A DNA stretch of 64,000 nucleotides. Source: Shimia sp. (GTDB lineage: Bacteria > Pseudomonadota > Alphaproteobacteria > Rhodobacterales > Rhodobacteraceae). The notes under the pieces are model-generated. The model was given only the letters and a program-made list of their open reading frames with translations. It was not told the origin of the DNA and did no database searches. Each line of letters opens with the position of its first letter. The stretch's first letter is position 1. Both the position numbers and the translations under genes were made by a program. Below are positions 1,084 to 28,219 of the stretch, in pieces. Location: the NCBI RefSeq assembly GCF_039969785.1, contig NZ_JBDVNC010000003.1, forward strand, positions 513-64,512, in the 5' to 3' direction.

Positions 1084-2220
1084 TCAGAGCGGTGATTTCA
1101 CGAAGGCGGGTGTGTCTTTGCCCTTCTTCAGGAACATCGCTGCTGTGTCCATTGCCTCGCGGATGGTGACATCCATGTCGAGATAGCGATAGGTGCCAAG
1201 GCGGCCCACAAACGTCACGCCCGCGGTCTTTTCAGCCAATGCCACATACTCCGACAGCTGCGCCTTTTCCTTGACCTGGCGGATCGGGTAGTAGGGGATG
1301 TCTTCGGGTTCGCAGCTGCGACTGAATTCCTTGTAGCAGACCGAACCTTCATGTTCTTCCCAAGGCGAGAAATGCTTGTGTTCGGTGATGCGCGTATAAG
1401 GCACGTCACGATCGCCGTAATTCATCACCGCGCAGCCCTGGTAATCCCCCTGATAGGTGAATTTCTCGAAATCCAGCGTCCGATAGCCAAGGCGACCCAA
1501 TTCGTAGCCGAAATAGCCATCCAGCGGGCCGGAATAGAAGACGTGGTCATAATCGGCGGCGCTGGTGGCATCGAACCAGGTTTCCAAATGCACGGTGATA
1601 GACGGGTGATCCAGAATAGCTTCGATCATGGGCGTGTAGCCATTTTCCGGCATACCCTGGAAGCGATGGAAGAAATAGTTGTCGTCATAGTTGAAGCGCA
1701 CGGGCAAGCGCTTGAGGATCGAAGCGGGCAGTTCGGTTGGCGAACACCCCCATTGCTTGATCGTGTAGCCCTCAAAAAATGCCTTGTAGAGGTCAGGGCC
1801 GACAAATTTTTGCGCTTGTTCTTCGAAGGTCTGTGGCTCCTGGACCGAGCTGTCACCGATTCCGGCAATGAAATCGCGCGCCTCATCGGGGCGCATCGTC
1901 TTGCCGTAATACTGGTTGATCGTGTGCAGGTTGATAGGCAGCGAGAACACTTGGCCCTCGCTCGTGGTTTTCACCCGGTTCTTGTAAGGCATGAAGGTGG
2001 TGTAGGAATTGACGTAGTCCCAGACCTCTTCGTCATCGGTGTGAAAAATATGAGGCCCATAGACATGCACCATGACACCGGTTTCGGTGTCACGTTCGGT
2101 ATGGCAATTGCCACCGATGTGGTCGCGCCCGTCGATGATGGTTATGGTGTGGCCCGCTTCGGCCAGCCGCCGCCCGATGACAGCGCCAGAAAGGCCGGCA
2201 CCCACAAGAAGAATATTCAA
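1084..2220 (-). CDS. glf: UDP-galactopyranose mutase
   Basis: 378 aa; FAD motif [26 protein letters not shown] and [12 protein letters not shown] are characteristic of Glf. Confidence 0.97.
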
Positions 2221-2503
2221 ACCAAATCGCCTTTCGATATCCAGTTTCTATGTAAATAGGCCTACAATGCACTTGGTGCTGACCTGCACCCCAAAGGAGC
2301 TCCTATAATGACGAGAGTCCGCGGATGCTGGCTTCATAGTTTCCTTCATTGTATTGGGCAAGCATGCAGGGCACATAGTTGTCAAATTATTTAGATGTAC
2401 AGCATATCTTGACCAAGCTGGCGTATACAGGCGCATCTCAAGACGCTCTGCGCTGGTTGGGGCAGCCTGCGCAAATCAGTGGATTTTGATCCGAGAGCCG
2501 GTT

Positions 2504-3967
2504 TTATCCGATTGAGCTCACCCAGTGAGGAAAAGGCCCCTCCCCATCGGGTACTTTTTTGGGCACCTTTTTAGGCGTTGCCGTAGCTGCCGGATCTTGA
2601 GGGATATACGATGCAAGCTCGTGGGCAATGTCGTTCAGATCCTGAGGGACCGAACGGTATTTCGGACCGTTAGCCAAGTTGCGTTGTTCGTAAGGGTCAA
2701 TGGTATGATCGTACAACTCTAGGCCGCCATTCCAATAGGTGACCAAGCGATGGGTTGCACTGCGTACACTGAATGCTAACAACAGTTCGCCATTCTCTGC
2801 GGGGGGTTTGACTCGCGGGAAACCGTAACAGGACACTACAGGTGGAAGGGCGGACGTTTCCATCTTCTGGAACAAGGGCCGCAGATCTTGACCATCGACA
2901 AAAGCCTGCGGGCGCGCCACGCCGAGTAATCCGAGCAGGGTCGGGCCAACGTCTACATTGGAAACGGGCGTTTCGATACGCATGGTCGGGATGTCGGGGC
3001 CGGCAAAGATCATGGGTGTCCGAAGCGACCGTTCCCAAAGCGAAAATTTGTGAAAGGTATTTTTTTCTCCAAACTGATACCCGTGGTCCGACCATAGGAC
3101 AATATAGGTGGTTTCGGTGAGGCCTTCTGCCTCAAGATGATCCAGTACCGACCCGAGGACCCAGTCAGCGTAGCTTATGGAGGCGAGATAGGCGCGCAAA
3201 AAGCTGTTATATTGCTGGTTCTCATATAGTTTCTTGCCAAACATACCCGCGCCTACAATCCGGTTTCGTGGTTCTCTGGGCAAGCCTTCTATTTCGTTGG
3301 AAGAAAAAGGATCAAAGAGTCGCTCTTTAAGGGCAGGGGCGGGTTCTACGGTTTCAGGATAAAGGTCAAAAAACCGTTGTGGGGCAATGAAAGGTAAATG
3401 CGGGCGATAAATTCCAAGGCTCCACACTTGTCCACTGGCCCCCCGGGTCATCTTGTTTTTAAGGTGGGTTGCGTTTCGTTCATCGTATAACGGACCCTCT
3501 GAGAGAGCGGGGCCATAGTCTATCATGCCTGCTTTTATCTGGCCGGTCTGTTGCAGCACGCTTTGGCGGGTATAGGGATCGTTGGGTTCCCGAAAGTAGT
3601 TTGTCCATTCGGCATCATTCACACCGCCATAGAACATTTTTCCGGAGCCCCAGGTTGTGAACCCGGAGTCGCGTAACACACCAATCAGCGAGCGATCCTG
3701 CCCCGGTTTGAAGGCGTGGAACCATTGCTGTTTATTGGTATAAAGACCAGTTCTCCACGGCATGCGCCCAAACAGAACAGCCGCCCGTGCAGGGGCGCAT
3801 GCCGGGGCCGCTGCGAAGGTATTGGGAAACAGTGCGCCACGCGCTGCCAGACGTGTAATGTTGGGGGTTTTGACCTGAGGATGTCCACCTAGAGGTTCAA
3901 CATAATCATTCAAATCTTCGAGCGAAACAAAAAGCAAATTTGGTCGTTGATGCTGGGATGTGCCCAT
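2504..3967 (-). CDS. Formylglycine-dependent (S1) sulfatase, iduronate/choline-sulfatase-like
   Basis: PNLLFVSLEDL, CAPAR (CxPxR signature), RPHLPF, SDHG, GLELYD; no obvious signal peptide. Confidence 0.9.
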   Translation of the reverse strand: MGTSQHQRPNLLFVSLEDLNDYVEPLGGHPQVKTPNITRLAARGALFPNTFAAAPACAPARAAVLFGRMPWRTGLYTNKQQWFHAFKPGQDRSLIGVLRDSGFTTWGSGKMFYGGVNDAEWTNYFREPNDPYTRQSVLQQTGQIKAGMIDYGPALSEGPLYDERNATHLKNKMTRGASGQVWSLGIYRPHLPFIAPQRFFDLYPETVEPAPALKERLFDPFSSNEIEGLPREPRNRIVGAGMFGKKLYENQQYNSFLRAYLASISYADWVLGSVLDHLEAEGLTETTYIVLWSDHGYQFGEKNTFHKFSLWERSLRTPMIFAGPDIPTMRIETPVSNVDVGPTLLGLLGVARPQAFVDGQDLRPLFQKMETSALPPVVSCYGFPRVKPPAENGELLLAFSVRSATHRLVTYWNGGLELYDHTIDPYEQRNLANGPKYRSVPQDLNDIAHELASYIPQDPAATATPKKVPKKVPDGEGPFPHWVSSIG

Positions 3968-26402: not shown

Positions 26403-26407
26403 AAGAC

Positions 26408-28219
26408 ATGGCTGACAGCTTAGACACTGGCACCCCTGCCCTGACAACGCTGCAAAGCCTGATCTGGCCCGAACAAGGGGTTTGCACGGAGCGCGACCTG
26501 TATGTGCGCCTGCATGGCGCAGCCGGGCTCTCGGAAAAGAAGGGGTTTGTGCATTTCACCCTCAATAGCCATGCCGAGTTCAACACCTGGTTCAACCTGT
26601 TCAACATCGGCAAGTGGAACCGGGACTGCGCGCTGTCTGATCTGCGTCTAACACTGGAGGGTACGGGCAAGTTCGAAGTTTCGGCTTTTTTAGCCATTCC
26701 CGATCGCTCATGGGAGAGGTTGGCCAACGAGGTGGTGAGCCTTGGTGAAGACAAACCGGCGACCCTGAATCTCAGCCATGTGTTCGACCTGCCTTTGGAT
26801 GAGGGCGTGATCTATTTTGAGATGAAAGCGATGGGGCATGGCAAGCTAACCGGTGCGCATTGGCAGACGGCCGATGCGCCGCGACGTATCCCGGAACTGA
26901 TGCTGTCGATCACCACTTTCCGGCGTGAAGCCGCAGTACAGCGCACAGCGCGACGTTTTGAAAAATGGATAGGCACCTGCAGCGCGCAGGACCATATCCG
27001 CATGACTGTGGTGGATAACGGGCAAAGCGTACAGATTCCCGACAGCGACAACATCGTAGTTGTGCCCAATGAGAACCTCGGCGGGGCTGGTGGATTTGCC
27101 CGAGGCCTACTGGCAGCACGCGATACCGGGGCGAGTCACTGCCTGTTCATGGATGACGATGCATCTGTCCACATGGAGAGCATCGAGCGCTCTTATTGGT
27201 TCCTGGCCTATGCGAGCGATCCCAAGACGGCCGTGGCGGGTGCCATGATCAACGCCTCTCACCGTTGGGCTATCTGGGAAAACGGCGCGATCTTCAACAC
27301 GCGTTGTGTGCCGCTTCATATGGGGGTGGATCTGCGCGATTCCAGCCAGAGTTTTGGAATGGAATACGCCACAACCGGCCCGGCCCCTGACAATTTCTAT
27401 GGGGGATGGTGGTATTTCGCGTTCCCGGTGAACGCCGTTGAGCACATGCCATTTCCCTTCTTTGTGCGTGGAGATGATGTCAGCTTCTCGCTGGCGCATG
27501 ATTTCAACATCGTGACCCTCAACGGAGTGGTTTCGTTTCAGGACAGTTTCACAGACAAGGAATCGCCGCTGACCTGGTATCTCGACCTGCGCAGCCACCT
27601 GGCTCATCACCTGAGCCTGGACACGTTGCAGGTCGGCGCTGCCAAGACCCTCAAGATCGCGGCATGGTTCTTCCTGCGCAACCTGCCCCGCATGCATTAT
27701 GAGACAATCTCTGCCATCAACCTTGCGCTTGAAGACGTGATGAAAGGGCCGGCCTTTTTTGACGAAAACGCCGACATGGCCACGCGCCGGGGGGATATCA
27801 AGGCTTTGACACAAAGCGAAGTCTGGCAACCGGCACCGCCTGCCATACCGCCCAACAAGTGGCGTCTCAATCCGCAGAACCGCTGGATGCGGCTGCTCAT
27901 GAAAATCACGCTCAATGGGCATCTGCTGCCCTTCTTCCGTCTCTTTGGCAACAAGGTGGTGATTGAAGCCCAGGACCGGGGCCACTTGCGCTGGGTCTGG
28001 GGCTCATGCGAGCTGACATATCTCAGCGCCAACAAGCGCCAATGCTACACGGTGCGCCATTCCAAAACCCGCATGATCAAGGAAACCATCCGTTTCTGTG
28101 CGCTGTCTTTCCGATTCTTGACGCGGTATTCCCAAATTCAGGCCGAATGGACCGAAGGTTATGAAAACCTTACCTCGGATGGCTATTGGCGTAAGAAATT
28201 GCATGCGCCAGCCAAATGA
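26408..28219 (+). CDS. GT2 glycosyltransferase, GlfT2-like galactofuranosyltransferase
   Basis: NENLGGAGGFARG, FMDDDA, YGGWW, FFVRGDDVSF and YLDLR. Confidence 0.82.
   Translation: MADSLDTGTPALTTLQSLIWPEQGVCTERDLYVRLHGAAGLSEKKGFVHFTLNSHAEFNTWFNLFNIGKWNRDCALSDLRLTLEGTGKFEVSAFLAIPDRSWERLANEVVSLGEDKPATLNLSHVFDLPLDEGVIYFEMKAMGHGKLTGAHWQTADAPRRIPELMLSITTFRREAAVQRTARRFEKWIGTCSAQDHIRMTVVDNGQSVQIPDSDNIVVVPNENLGGAGGFARGLLAARDTGASHCLFMDDDASVHMESIERSYWFLAYASDPKTAVAGAMINASHRWAIWENGAIFNTRCVPLHMGVDLRDSSQSFGMEYATTGPAPDNFYGGWWYFAFPVNAVEHMPFPFFVRGDDVSFSLAHDFNIVTLNGVVSFQDSFTDKESPLTWYLDLRSHLAHHLSLDTLQVGAAKTLKIAAWFFLRNLPRMHYETISAINLALEDVMKGPAFFDENADMATRRGDIKALTQSEVWQPAPPAIPPNKWRLNPQNRWMRLLMKITLNGHLLPFFRLFGNKVVIEAQDRGHLRWVWGSCELTYLSANKRQCYTVRHSKTRMIKETIRFCALSFRFLTRYSQIQAEWTEGYENLTSDGYWRKKLHAPAK

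Follow-up and report, generated by a model that had tools for sequence, protein, structure and literature searches.

A candidate pathway for a sulfated galactofuranose-containing glycan, with eight sulfotransferase-like genes, on a Roseobacter-group plasmid

Introduction

The RepA-I biofilm plasmids of roseobacters share a core made up of a rhamnose operon and an ATP-binding cassette (ABC) exporter, with UDP-galactopyranose mutase and UDP-glucose dehydrogenase, to which each plasmid adds an individual polysaccharide gene set (Michael et al., 2016, PMC5030684). Sulfotransferases go unmentioned in that work. The subject of this study is a 64-kb stretch of DNA (positions 513 to 64,512 of contig NZ_JBDVNC010000003.1, Shimia sp.; hereafter the window, in whose numbering all coordinates are given), which covers all but ~5 kb of a RepA/ParAB plasmid of ~70 kb from a Roseobacter-group bacterium, on a contig of 69,495 bases. 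Eight sulfotransferase-like open reading frames (ORFs) were found there in company with genes for galactofuranose (Galf) metabolism, and may belong to a pathway for a sulfated, Galf-containing glycan. Like the described biofilm plasmids, this replicon combines a size of ~65-70 kb with RepA and parAB, an rmlCBDA operon, a three-gene ABC polysaccharide exporter, UDP-galactopyranose mutase, UDP-glucose dehydrogenase and strain-specific extra polysaccharide genes. Unlike them as described in that work, it has the eight sulfotransferase-like genes and a sulfatase gene, and an 18.5-kb block of RTX genes parts its exporter from its GlfT2-like gene.

Glf makes UDP-Galf, and GlfT2 polymerises Galf. The gene set of the window parallels the mycobacterial galactan route (WecA, WbbL, Glf, GlfT1, GlfT2 and Wzm/Wzt), since it combines rmlCBDA, a primer enzyme of the WbaP/WcaJ type, an ABC exporter and Galf enzymes. 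Common to both are Glf, a GlfT2 homologue with DDD and DD motifs, a family 2 glycosyltransferase (GT2) whose best match is GlfT1, a supply of dTDP-rhamnose, a polyprenyl-phosphate primer enzyme and the ABC exporter, whose KpsT-like ATPase scores 9e-28 against the 'galactan export Wzt' model as well. Unlike the mycobacterial pathway, the window belongs to a Gram-negative host, includes a KpsE-like co-polymerase and has no arabinan genes; mycobacterial galactan is not known to be sulfated, and the GlfT1 and Wzt homology in the window falls below equivalog cut-offs. The D-galactan I of Klebsiella O1/O2 (Glf, WbbM/N/O and Wzm/Wzt) is likewise an ABC-dependent Galf glycan with an ATPase that has no carbohydrate-binding extension, but it is built by other glycosyltransferase families, is not known to be sulfated and is chromosomally encoded.

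Sulfotransferase genes lie within a polysaccharide cluster, as in the window, in the plasmid-borne synechan xss cluster of Synechocystis, where the presence of two such genes in a bacterial exopolysaccharide cluster was called unprecedented (PMC8205485), and in Vibrio sp. KMM 8419, whose ABC-dependent capsule is known to be sulfated and whose cluster has three sulfotransferases, a rhamnose operon and cysNDC (PMC11641403). The two or three sulfotransferases of these clusters belong to families recognised by Pfam, whereas the window has eight, four of them from an unmodelled family; a glf or GlfT2-like gene is unreported in the xss (PMC8205485) and Vibrio (PMC11641403) clusters, whereas the window has Galf machinery. 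Rhizobial NodH, LpsS and KpsS and mycobacterial Stf0 are sulfotransferases of bacteria that act on glycoconjugates with 3'-phosphoadenosine 5'-phosphosulfate (PAPS) as donor, and one ORF of the window (19019) groups with them by the annotation of its homologues (PMC11625862). Their substrates are lipo-oligosaccharide, lipopolysaccharide (LPS), K-antigen or trehalose, and none is known to be linked to Galf synthesis. Bias in Pfam is said in a review to conceal bacterial polysaccharide sulfotransferases (PMC11625862). In the literature searched, no account of a sulfated galactofuranan from bacteria came to light, nor any of sulfotransferases encoded by roseobacter biofilm plasmids.

Results

Eight ORFs carry the motifs of PAPS-dependent sulfotransferases

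A gene map was drawn from an ORF listing together with Pfam and NCBIfam scans of the window. All eight ORFs to which a first-pass annotation of this DNA had given a sulfotransferase fold were recovered as uninterrupted frames with both PAPS-binding motifs, and its count of at least four sub-types also held: two are of the Sulfotransfer_3/1 type, one is of the Sulfotransfer_2 type, one is Stf0/NodH-like and four are HIGxxKTxST paralogs. Searches with Pfam, with family hidden Markov models (HMMs) and with AlphaFold2 (AF2) models in Foldseek agreed with the proposed fold. Reading of the sequences by eye showed that all eight contain a G-x-x-K/R-T/G-x-T/S-T loop and a downstream R-x(7)-S motif, and that an N-terminal signal peptide or transmembrane segment is absent in all of them. 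A six-frame search of the 64 kb with a regular expression for the loop gave nine matches, namely six of the eight ORFs, a relic described below and two spurious ones; the Sulfotransfer_2- and Stf0-type loops lie outside this pattern. Pfam cut-offs were passed by three of the eight (5972, 7447 and 16616; ORFs are named by their first coordinate). Judged by fold and motifs, the eight are putative sulfotransferases.

The ORF at 5972..6811 (+) is a canonical member (Sulfotransfer_3 1e-15, Sulfotransfer_1 2e-11) with the loop GIGAQKAGTTW, the 3'-phosphate-binding motif MRDPVSRAKS and a GC content at third codon positions (GC3) of 0.54. The canonical ORF at 7447..8328 (-) matches Sulfotransfer_3 at 2e-17 and is 26% identical to the 5972 gene (tblastn 1e-18). 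The ORF at 16616..17299 (+) is of the Sulfotransfer_2 type (PF03567, 2e-6, 28.6 bits against a cut-off of 22), with the motifs HIGKTGGT and FREPEKRFIS and a GC3 of 0.425. The Stf0/NodH-like ORF at 19019..19786 (+) has the motifs WTMRRTGGTT and LRREDEVARILS. Its Stf0 match (7e-4) is below the Pfam cut-off and its best match among PDB sequences was a non-significant one to NodH (E 0.22); its homologues (40-71% identity) have PF09037 and are annotated as Stf0 or NodH sulfotransferases.

Four paralogs form a family outside Pfam and NCBIfam

The other four ORFs, termed the H family, are all on the plus strand: 10744..11643 (HIGTHKTAST ... LRRPDFFLES), 15702..16583 (YLGAHKTATT ... VRSYDSFYRS), 24361..25392 (HIGTPKTAST ... 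VRRQDDAILS), whose stop overlaps the start of the next gene, and 25389..26402 (HPGIQRTATT ... LRRQDLWLES; H25389), the reference of the family, with 188 homologues. They are 19-26% identical to one another. An HMM of 46 H25389 homologues, from which the paralogs had been left out, matched 10744 at 5e-24, 24361 at 8e-22 and 15702 at 2e-8, and an hhalign comparison of the 15702 and H25389 families, with paralogs removed, gave 99.3% probability (E 8e-21, 274 columns). On these profile comparisons the four ORFs are assigned to one superfamily. Neither Pfam nor NCBIfam gave any match to 10744, 24361 or 25389 even at E<=10, and PDB sequence searches with 10744 and 25389 returned nothing relevant. 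For 15702, whose 89 homologues are every one named 'hypothetical', a weak Sulfotransfer_3 match below the cut-off (0.004) was the only one in Pfam, and its family profile gave non-significant sulfotransferase matches among PDB sequences, the best being SULT4A1 (E 0.027).

Structures were modelled with AF2 from an alignment of 49 sequences for H25389 and of 44 sequences for H15702, and both models were confident (predicted local distance difference test, pLDDT, 93.8 and 94.8, respectively). Foldseek searches of the PDB with both models showed that nearly all matches are PAPS sulfotransferases, with the top >=20 at a probability of ~1.0; the leading ones were the bacterial sulfotransferase 3rnl, tyrosylprotein sulfotransferases, cytosolic SULTs, NDST1 and heparan-sulfate 3-O-sulfotransferases (3-OSTs). 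The best template-modelling (TM) scores were those of the carbohydrate enzymes 3-OST and NDST (0.47-0.50 query-normalised, 0.52-0.59 target-normalised), the H15702 model reaching 0.47-0.56 against heparan-sulfate 3-OSTs. In the family alignments a G and a T are invariant and a K/R is nearly invariant in the first strand-loop-helix, a Glu is invariant after the second strand, and R-x-x-D-x-x-x-x-S is invariant after the third; in the H25389 homologues the invariant residues are G10, T14, E84, R113, D116 and S121. These positions can be read as the 5'-phosphosulfate loop, the catalytic base and the 3'-phosphate motif of known enzymes, the invariant Glu presumably corresponding to the 3-OST/NST position. 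The next-best matches of the H-family HMMs in the window were the canonical sulfotransferases. By these models the H-family ORFs are sulfotransferase-fold proteins. They have in common with the sulfotransferase domains of 3-OST and NDST the loop, the 3'-phosphate motif and the acidic candidate base, and differ from them in sequence (~10-14% identity), in an additional C-terminal helical region of ~100 amino acids (aa), and in being bacterial and predicted to be cytoplasmic.

Among 1.84 billion cluster representatives, a profile search found 33,582 matches at E<=1e-3, 16,584 at <=1e-10 and 1,922 at <=1e-30, many of which carry two to four domain copies or extra domains. Eight long matches were scanned for domains. 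One of them, the metagenomic protein P0261, is a fusion of an H25389 domain with a GlfT2-like glycosyltransferase (Glft2_N, GT2 and GlfT2_domain3); the others have GT4, GT14 "Branch", methyltransferase or Sulfotransfer_1 domains. These fusions connect the family with the making of glycans, and with GlfT2-like enzymes in particular. Giant members of up to ~1,700 aa, of which there are many (P0261, P0273, P0285, P0288 and others), have tandem H domains or fused glycosyltransferase or methyltransferase domains.

H25389-type genes adjoin GlfT2-like genes in other genomes

Directly downstream of H25389 lies a gene for a GlfT2-like galactofuranosyltransferase and candidate Galf polymerase (26408..28219, +). 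Its product matched GlfT2 structures in the PDB sequence search (9dtp 3e-25, 4fix 1e-21) over residues 3-482, that is, the N-terminal beta-sandwich, the GT-A domain and the start of the C-terminal domain. The MDDD sequence is identical and a DD aligns with KWDD of GlfT2; we take the DDD motif and the DD (catalytic Asp pair) to have the roles that they have in that enzyme. The Pfam scan matched GT2 and also Glft2_N, the latter at 24.4 bits, just under the cut-off of 26.1. Co-occurrence with glf is what points to UDP-Galf as the donor of this candidate polymerase. H24361 and H25389 overlap by 4 bp, and 5 bp separate H25389 from the GlfT2-like gene; by this spacing the three genes are predicted to be translationally coupled.

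A pattern scan for the H25389 family in one genome per GTDB species gave 109 relatives, of which 80 were kept; the named taxa among these are all Rhodobacterales, apart from one Robiginitomaculum metagenome-assembled genome. A 24361-like gene is present in 62 of 81 related loci. The combination of glf, an H25389-type gene and a GlfT2-like gene occurs in ~100 Rhodobacterales species. Neighbours were counted in the 46 GTDB loci with full 10-kb flanks around the H25389 orthologue. The results showed glf in 33/46, a GlfT2-like glycosyltransferase gene in 33/46, a GlfT1-like one in 26/46 and exporter genes in 16-20/46, and a GlfT2-like neighbour was within 300 bp of the H25389 orthologue in 33 of 50 cases. 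The canonical order is glf, H25389, GlfT2-like, KpsT, KpsE, KpsM and GlfT1-like, and rml often comes next. The window has this module in separated parts: accessory genes interrupt it on one side, the RTX block on the other.

The reverse test gave the same picture: among ten plasmid loci picked only by their GlfT2-like gene, eight have H-family genes within 6 kb, mostly abutting. The exceptions are plasmid pAES7 of Paracoccus aestuarii, with no H gene and a pyruvyl transferase in that place, and an Acetobacter plasmid, with no H gene and an annotated sulfotransferase 3 kb off. Both in pAES7 (L085, 2492-5029) and in Gemmobacter fulvus p4 (L086, 3353-5968), the gene immediately upstream of the GlfT2-like one, whose start it overlaps, is a large one for a 'polysaccharide pyruvyl transferase', at a place that H-family genes take in most other loci. 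Pyruvate may serve there as the anionic group on a polymer of the same type. In G. fulvus the gene directly downstream of the GlfT2-like gene (L086, 7818-8963), annotated 'nitroreductase', has a weak H-family HMM match (4e-6), and this annotation may be wrong.

In Leisingera aquaemixtae, Phaeobacter sp. G2 and Ruegeria sp. PR1b, plasmids with the exporter and RepA/ParAB also have "hypothetical" H-family genes and, around glf, annotated sulfotransferases. By gene content, the arrangement is not peculiar to the plasmid studied here, which has an expanded variant of a module widespread on roseobacter plasmids and chromosomes. A module that pairs a sulfotransferase-fold enzyme with a GlfT2-like polymerase is previously unrecognised. 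Adjacency in both directions and the P0261 fusion support a functional link between the H family and Galf synthesis at the level of gene organisation.

Galf machinery, precursor genes and exporter

The glf gene (1084..2220, -) named in the first-pass annotation was confirmed by Pfam (GLF 2e-79, with the FAD-binding N-terminus) and encodes a protein 72-81% identical in aa sequence to that of glf in 47 related loci. As for the two GlfT2-like GT2 enzymes claimed there, 26408 proved a genuine GlfT2 homologue (1e-21 to 3e-25), but 13429 is a marginal case (2e-3). The latter (13429..15390, -) encodes a distant GT-A glycosyltransferase with DDD and RGDD motifs and without a Pfam match, whose similarity to GlfT2 is weak (9dtp 2e-3, 4fix 0.13) and confined to the GT-A region (residues 183-430); in tblastn it matched 26408 at 7e-8. 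It forms a two-gene unit with an ORF of 162 aa and unassigned function (12944..13432, -), which overlaps the stop of the upstream gene, has no family match and was seen in none of the related loci.

For a GT2 gene at 50759..51799 (-; Pfam 7e-19), the best match in NCBIfam is GlfT1 (3e-17), which falls well short of the equivalog cut-off. A protein of 1040 aa (19871..22993, +) has ~750 unassigned aa, with no Pfam match at E<=10, followed by a GT2 domain (Glyco_tranf_2_4, 7e-23, residues 756-852). By Pfam, 51968..60326 (+) contains rmlC, rmlB, rmlD, rmlA, manC, ugd, an epimerase gene and a gene for a polyprenyl-phosphate glycosylphosphotransferase; the last (59673-60326) matches NCBIfam EPS_sugtrans at 2e-52 and is a primer enzyme of the WbaP/WcaJ type.

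The KpsMTE exporter noted earlier on the same replicon was found as a KpsT-like ATPase (47701-48420, -), a KpsE-like PCP-3 protein (~48372-49505, -) and a KpsM-like permease (49771-50724, +), with Pfam matches to ABC_tran and ABC2_membrane and NCBIfam matches to BexC/CtrB/KpsE (TIGR01010, 5e-59), KpsM (5e-19) and, for the ATPase, Wzt/TagH/VexC. The KpsE-like ORF is listed as 48372-49886, with ~125 N-terminal residues of low complexity (G, P, Q, K) ahead of a conserved part that begins at the Met at ~49505, and it overlaps the start of the KpsT-like gene by 49 bp. The idea that sulfate is a chain-terminating cap read by the exporter was set aside, the ATPase having just 239 aa and no carbohydrate-binding extension.

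A conserved core and an arm bounded by insertion sequences

A metagenomic contig (L001) is syntenic with 15702-28219, a block of mostly co-directional genes, at 61-83% aa identity (1040-aa protein 61%, 24361 70%, 23385 71%, beta-helix protein 83%). For eight genes shared with L001 the ratio of nonsynonymous to synonymous substitutions (dN/dS) was 0.07-0.22, with dS near saturation, and 0.07 for 26408; these values indicate that the eight genes are under purifying selection. Among them, the beta-helix protein (17510..18922, +; Beta_helix 9e-9) has a dN/dS of 0.09; the presence of this right-handed beta-helix protein was verified, but the name "depolymerase" is only a guess for a cytoplasmic protein without a signal peptide. 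The ORF at 23385..23936 (-; 183 aa, function unassigned, dN/dS 0.14) has, like 12944 and 46881, no Pfam match at E<=10. The place of 16616 is taken in L001 (775-1425) by a non-homologous gene of 216 aa without a family match, which looks like a cassette swap inside a conserved operon.

Left of this core lie genes of another kind. A Cys-type sulfatase gene (2504..3967, -; Sulfatase 1e-38 and SGSH_C) is co-directional with glf and has CAPAR at residues 57-61, the C/S-x-P-x-R formylglycine motif; its best NCBIfam match is choline-sulfatase (3e-52, below the cut-off), it is ~31-33% identical to sulfatases of polysaccharide degraders, and its GC3 is 0.54. While the gene is thus as the first-pass annotation had it, its role in "editing" the glycan is a guess: a signal peptide is lacking, the GC3 does not fit the plasmid, and none of the 81 related loci has the gene. 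Of the two sulfotransferase relics suspected earlier, one was found at 4070..4171 (+), where the N-terminal 34 codons of a 7447-type gene (FIGLGFMKCGTTF; tblastn 59% identity to the 7447 N-terminus, E 1e-8; phmmer 9.5e-10) are truncated by an IS256 fragment. Searches for a second with tblastn at E<1, with the loop pattern, and with phmmer and the family HMMs run over all six-frame fragments of at least 25 aa found none.

IS256- and IS5-family transposase fragments (4171..5524, +; Transposase_mut, DDE_Tnp_1_5) are 82-86% identical in nucleotide sequence to copies of these insertion sequences (ISs) on roseobacter plasmids. Further IS debris at 8532..10382 consists, by its ORF translations, of an integrase-type transposase with a frameshift and of an IS5-family transposase split in two (DDE_Tnp_1 at 9544-9966), and a C-terminal fragment at 11900..12600 (-) is assigned to the Tn3 family by reading of its translation. 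Between sulfotransferases 5972 and 7447 sits the expected O-acetyltransferase gene, which was borne out as a hexapeptide-repeat enzyme of XAT/WbbJ-like type (6840..7439, -; Hexapep 4e-11; NCBIfam Vat, CatB and WbbJ families, all below cut-offs; GC3 0.445).

GC3 was 0.43-0.54 in 5972, 6840, 7447, 16616 and the sulfatase gene, compared with 0.61-0.72 in the H-family, glycosyltransferase and exporter genes. All five except 16616 are bounded by IS256, IS5, integrase-type and Tn3 fragments. Low GC3 and IS fragments (for 16616, GC3 only) thus mark 5972, 6840, 7447 and 16616 as likely recent additions, and together with the sulfatase gene they look, by composition and setting, like recently acquired accessories. 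L001 has none of the left-arm genes, and the 80 GTDB loci have hardly any of them; the exception is 10744, with distant relatives in 18 loci. The cluster is therefore best described, on these genomic comparisons, as layered, with a native conserved core (15702-28219 plus exporter, rml and glf) and recent IS-flanked accessories (5972, 6840, 7447, 16616 and the sulfatase gene).

Plasmid backbone and RTX block

Replication and partition genes occupy 60373..64000, with parB (-) and parA (-) at 60373-62756 (ParB_N, AAA_31/CbiA) and repA (+) running from 63211 past the window end, which bears out the plasmid status assumed earlier. At 71% identity, RepA matches the 'replication initiator protein A' encoded by a plasmid of Leisingera aquaemixtae. 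An ORF at 63130-63888 (-) was rejected as a gene, as its translation looks spurious and the real repA is on the plus strand. With RepA, parAB, a rhamnose operon and an ABC polysaccharide exporter, the replicon is, by gene content, of the kind described as roseobacter "biofilm plasmids". The window has no PLSDB entry, and megablast matched only glf, IS elements, rml, ugd and manC (71-86% nucleotide identity). The first 20 kb showed 0 differences across four independent DNA runs; the word depth of the plasmid was 10-34x among ~1.5 million contigs per run (runs X1-X4). Oligo-dT RNA-Seq and PacBio runs of 45-63 Gb share the organism label of these runs, and the plasmid probably stems from a bacterium associated with a eukaryote that was being sequenced.

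Six RTX (HemolysinCabind) genes lie directly downstream of the GlfT2-like gene (28351-46837, 18.5 kb), one with a GH12 domain, one with VWA and two with serralysin-type C-terminal domains. Their position is the junction of the GlfT2-like gene and the ABC exporter in the canonical modules of other Rhodobacterales. At the window start, upstream of glf, a short ORF (167-520) that has a single RTX repeat block may be a fragment of another RTX gene. Type I secretion genes were found nowhere in the window; related plasmids have them.

Discussion

Taken together, the gene content makes it reasonably probable that a Galf-containing glycan is made and sulfated by this plasmid's host. The polyprenyl-phosphate sugar-phosphate transferase (59673) would prime the lipid carrier, rmlCBDA would supply dTDP-rhamnose and glf UDP-Galf, and the GlfT1-like enzyme (50759) and the GlfT2 homologue (26408) would build a Galf-containing chain at the cytoplasmic face, possibly helped by the distant GlfT2-like 13429 and the 1040-aa GT2 protein. 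Soluble PAPS-dependent sulfotransferases would then O-sulfate the lipid-linked rhamnose/Galf chain in the cytoplasm, the H25389-type enzyme acting as the core sulfotransferase, translationally coupled to the polymerase, and the other seven adding or varying sulfate positions. The hexapeptide enzyme may add acetyl groups before the KpsM/T/E-like ABC system exports the finished anionic polymer. Sulfation is placed in the cytoplasm because PAPS, to our knowledge, occurs only there. As ABC-dependent glycans are completed in the cytoplasm before export and the enzymes are predicted to be cytoplasmic, sulfation and acetylation ahead of KpsMTE-type export is a coherent reading.

The first-pass annotation had put forward a Galf-rich, sulfated surface glycan. 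In its favour are the gene set (Glf, GlfT2 homologue, GlfT1-like GT2, dTDP-rhamnose, primer enzyme and exporter) and the H-Galf link (33/46, 8/10 and the fusion), although the polymer could hold little Galf. Its further description as a mimic of marine algal sulfated galactans does not follow, since algal galactans are pyranosidic.

Several other observations weigh against a sulfated Galf glycan. PAPS-synthesis genes, whose absence the first-pass annotation had already noted, are a case in point: searches with CysC, CysD and CysN of E. coli found no CysC or CysD homologue in the window or in 82 related loci, so that the donor must come from chromosomal genes, whereas the Vibrio sp. KMM 8419 cluster keeps cysNDC (PMC11641403); CysN matches in seven of the 82 loci, at 24-26% identity, are probably other GTPases. 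The scores of the GlfT1-like and KpsE/M/T proteins are under the NCBIfam equivalog cut-offs. A Pfam scan of ~50 ORFs of the window, among them nearly every non-overlapped one with at least 150 aa, gave no KpsC, KpsS or KpsD domain, and the system is hence not a canonical group 2 capsule system; it has a primer enzyme of the WbaP/WcaJ type instead. The Foldseek E-values of the H-family models are modest (2e-5 to 1e-3) and the query-normalised TM-scores just 0.4-0.5. The left arm from 4 to 13 kb is full of IS and Tn3 fragments, so some of its genes may be silent cargo. No RNA reads for 5900-25899 were found in three RNA-Seq runs and one oligo-dT run, which were evidently without this bacterium.

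Part of the case for a sulfated Galf glycan turns on what the sulfotransferases act upon. NodH, Stf0, LpsS and KpsS act on acceptors of the glycolipid or lipo-oligosaccharide type, and RaxST sulfates tyrosines next to a type I secretion system. The enzymes of the window might similarly modify non-Galf acceptors (the core or lipid A of LPS, a glycolipid or lipo-oligosaccharide, a small molecule, or tyrosines in the secreted RTX proteins encoded next to them) and leave the glf/GlfT2 glycan unsulfated. Consistent with this, 19019 is in the Stf0/NodH group, whose known members sulfate glycolipids (PMC11625862), tyrosylprotein sulfotransferases are second and third in the H25389 Foldseek list, six RTX genes follow directly downstream, and 5972 and 7447 occupy a cassette of their own, bounded by ISs and foreign in composition. 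However, the H family adjoins GlfT2-like genes in both test directions and is fused to such an enzyme in P0261 and to other glycosyltransferases elsewhere, the canonical modules have no RTX block at that position, and the best TM-scores belong to carbohydrate sulfotransferases; we regard non-Galf acceptors as unlikely. Still less probable, in our judgement, is that the HIGxxKT proteins share the fold of sulfotransferases and P-loop kinases but use another nucleotide-activated donor or act as kinases, which would leave four of the eight genes as sulfotransferases. No sequence-level match to any sulfotransferase model, TM-scores of ~0.4-0.5, some P-loop NTPases further down the Foldseek list and the fact that no characterised member was found in the literature would fit such a role. 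Yet the loop is G-x-x-K/R-T-A-S/T-T and not Walker A (GxxxxGK[ST]), R-x-x-D-x-x-x-x-S is invariant after the third strand, where sulfotransferases bind the 3'-phosphate, the invariant Glu is placed after strand 2 as in 3-OST/NST, at least the top 20 structural matches are sulfotransferases, and the family HMMs find the canonical sulfotransferases of the window next.

The extent of modification is another matter. The locus may be a mosaic in flux in which only the core (15702-28219, exporter, rml and glf) is functional while the left arm (sulfatase, 5972, 6840, 7447, 10744, 12944 and 13429) is hitch-hiking or decaying, and the polymer would then be less, or differently, modified. The transposase fragments and truncated sulfotransferase at 4.1-12.6 kb, the low GC3 of the accessory genes relative to the core and the near absence of left-arm genes from related loci all point that way. 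On the other hand, the left-arm ORFs are all full length with intact motifs, and accretion of strain-specific polysaccharide genes is normal for such plasmids (PMC5030684). We consider this mosaic reading rather unlikely, though a serious contender, and it is compatible with a pathway for a sulfated rhamnose/Galf glycan.

Biofilm plasmids decide the surface and algal attachment of abundant marine roseobacters. No chemical definition of the polymer that they export was found in the searchable literature, and the sulfated-glycan reading predicts a rhamnose/Galf chain with ester sulfate. We tentatively propose, as an idea that may well prove too broad, that H25389-type proteins are a new polysaccharide sulfotransferase family outside Pfam and NCBIfam which works in complex with GlfT2-like polymerases, at times as a fusion with them, that, if so, many roseobacter biofilm plasmids and chromosomal loci direct an ABC-exported polymer that is a sulfated galactofuranan, and that the plasmid described here encodes a hyper-decorated variant, with sulfation tuning a 'swim-or-stick' surface chemistry. 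Polysaccharide sulfotransferases of new specificity are wanted for the enzymatic synthesis of sulfated glycans. A model for the H family, which has 16,584 representatives at E<=1e-10 and no database model, would change the count of bacterial glycan clusters that are read as "sulfated".

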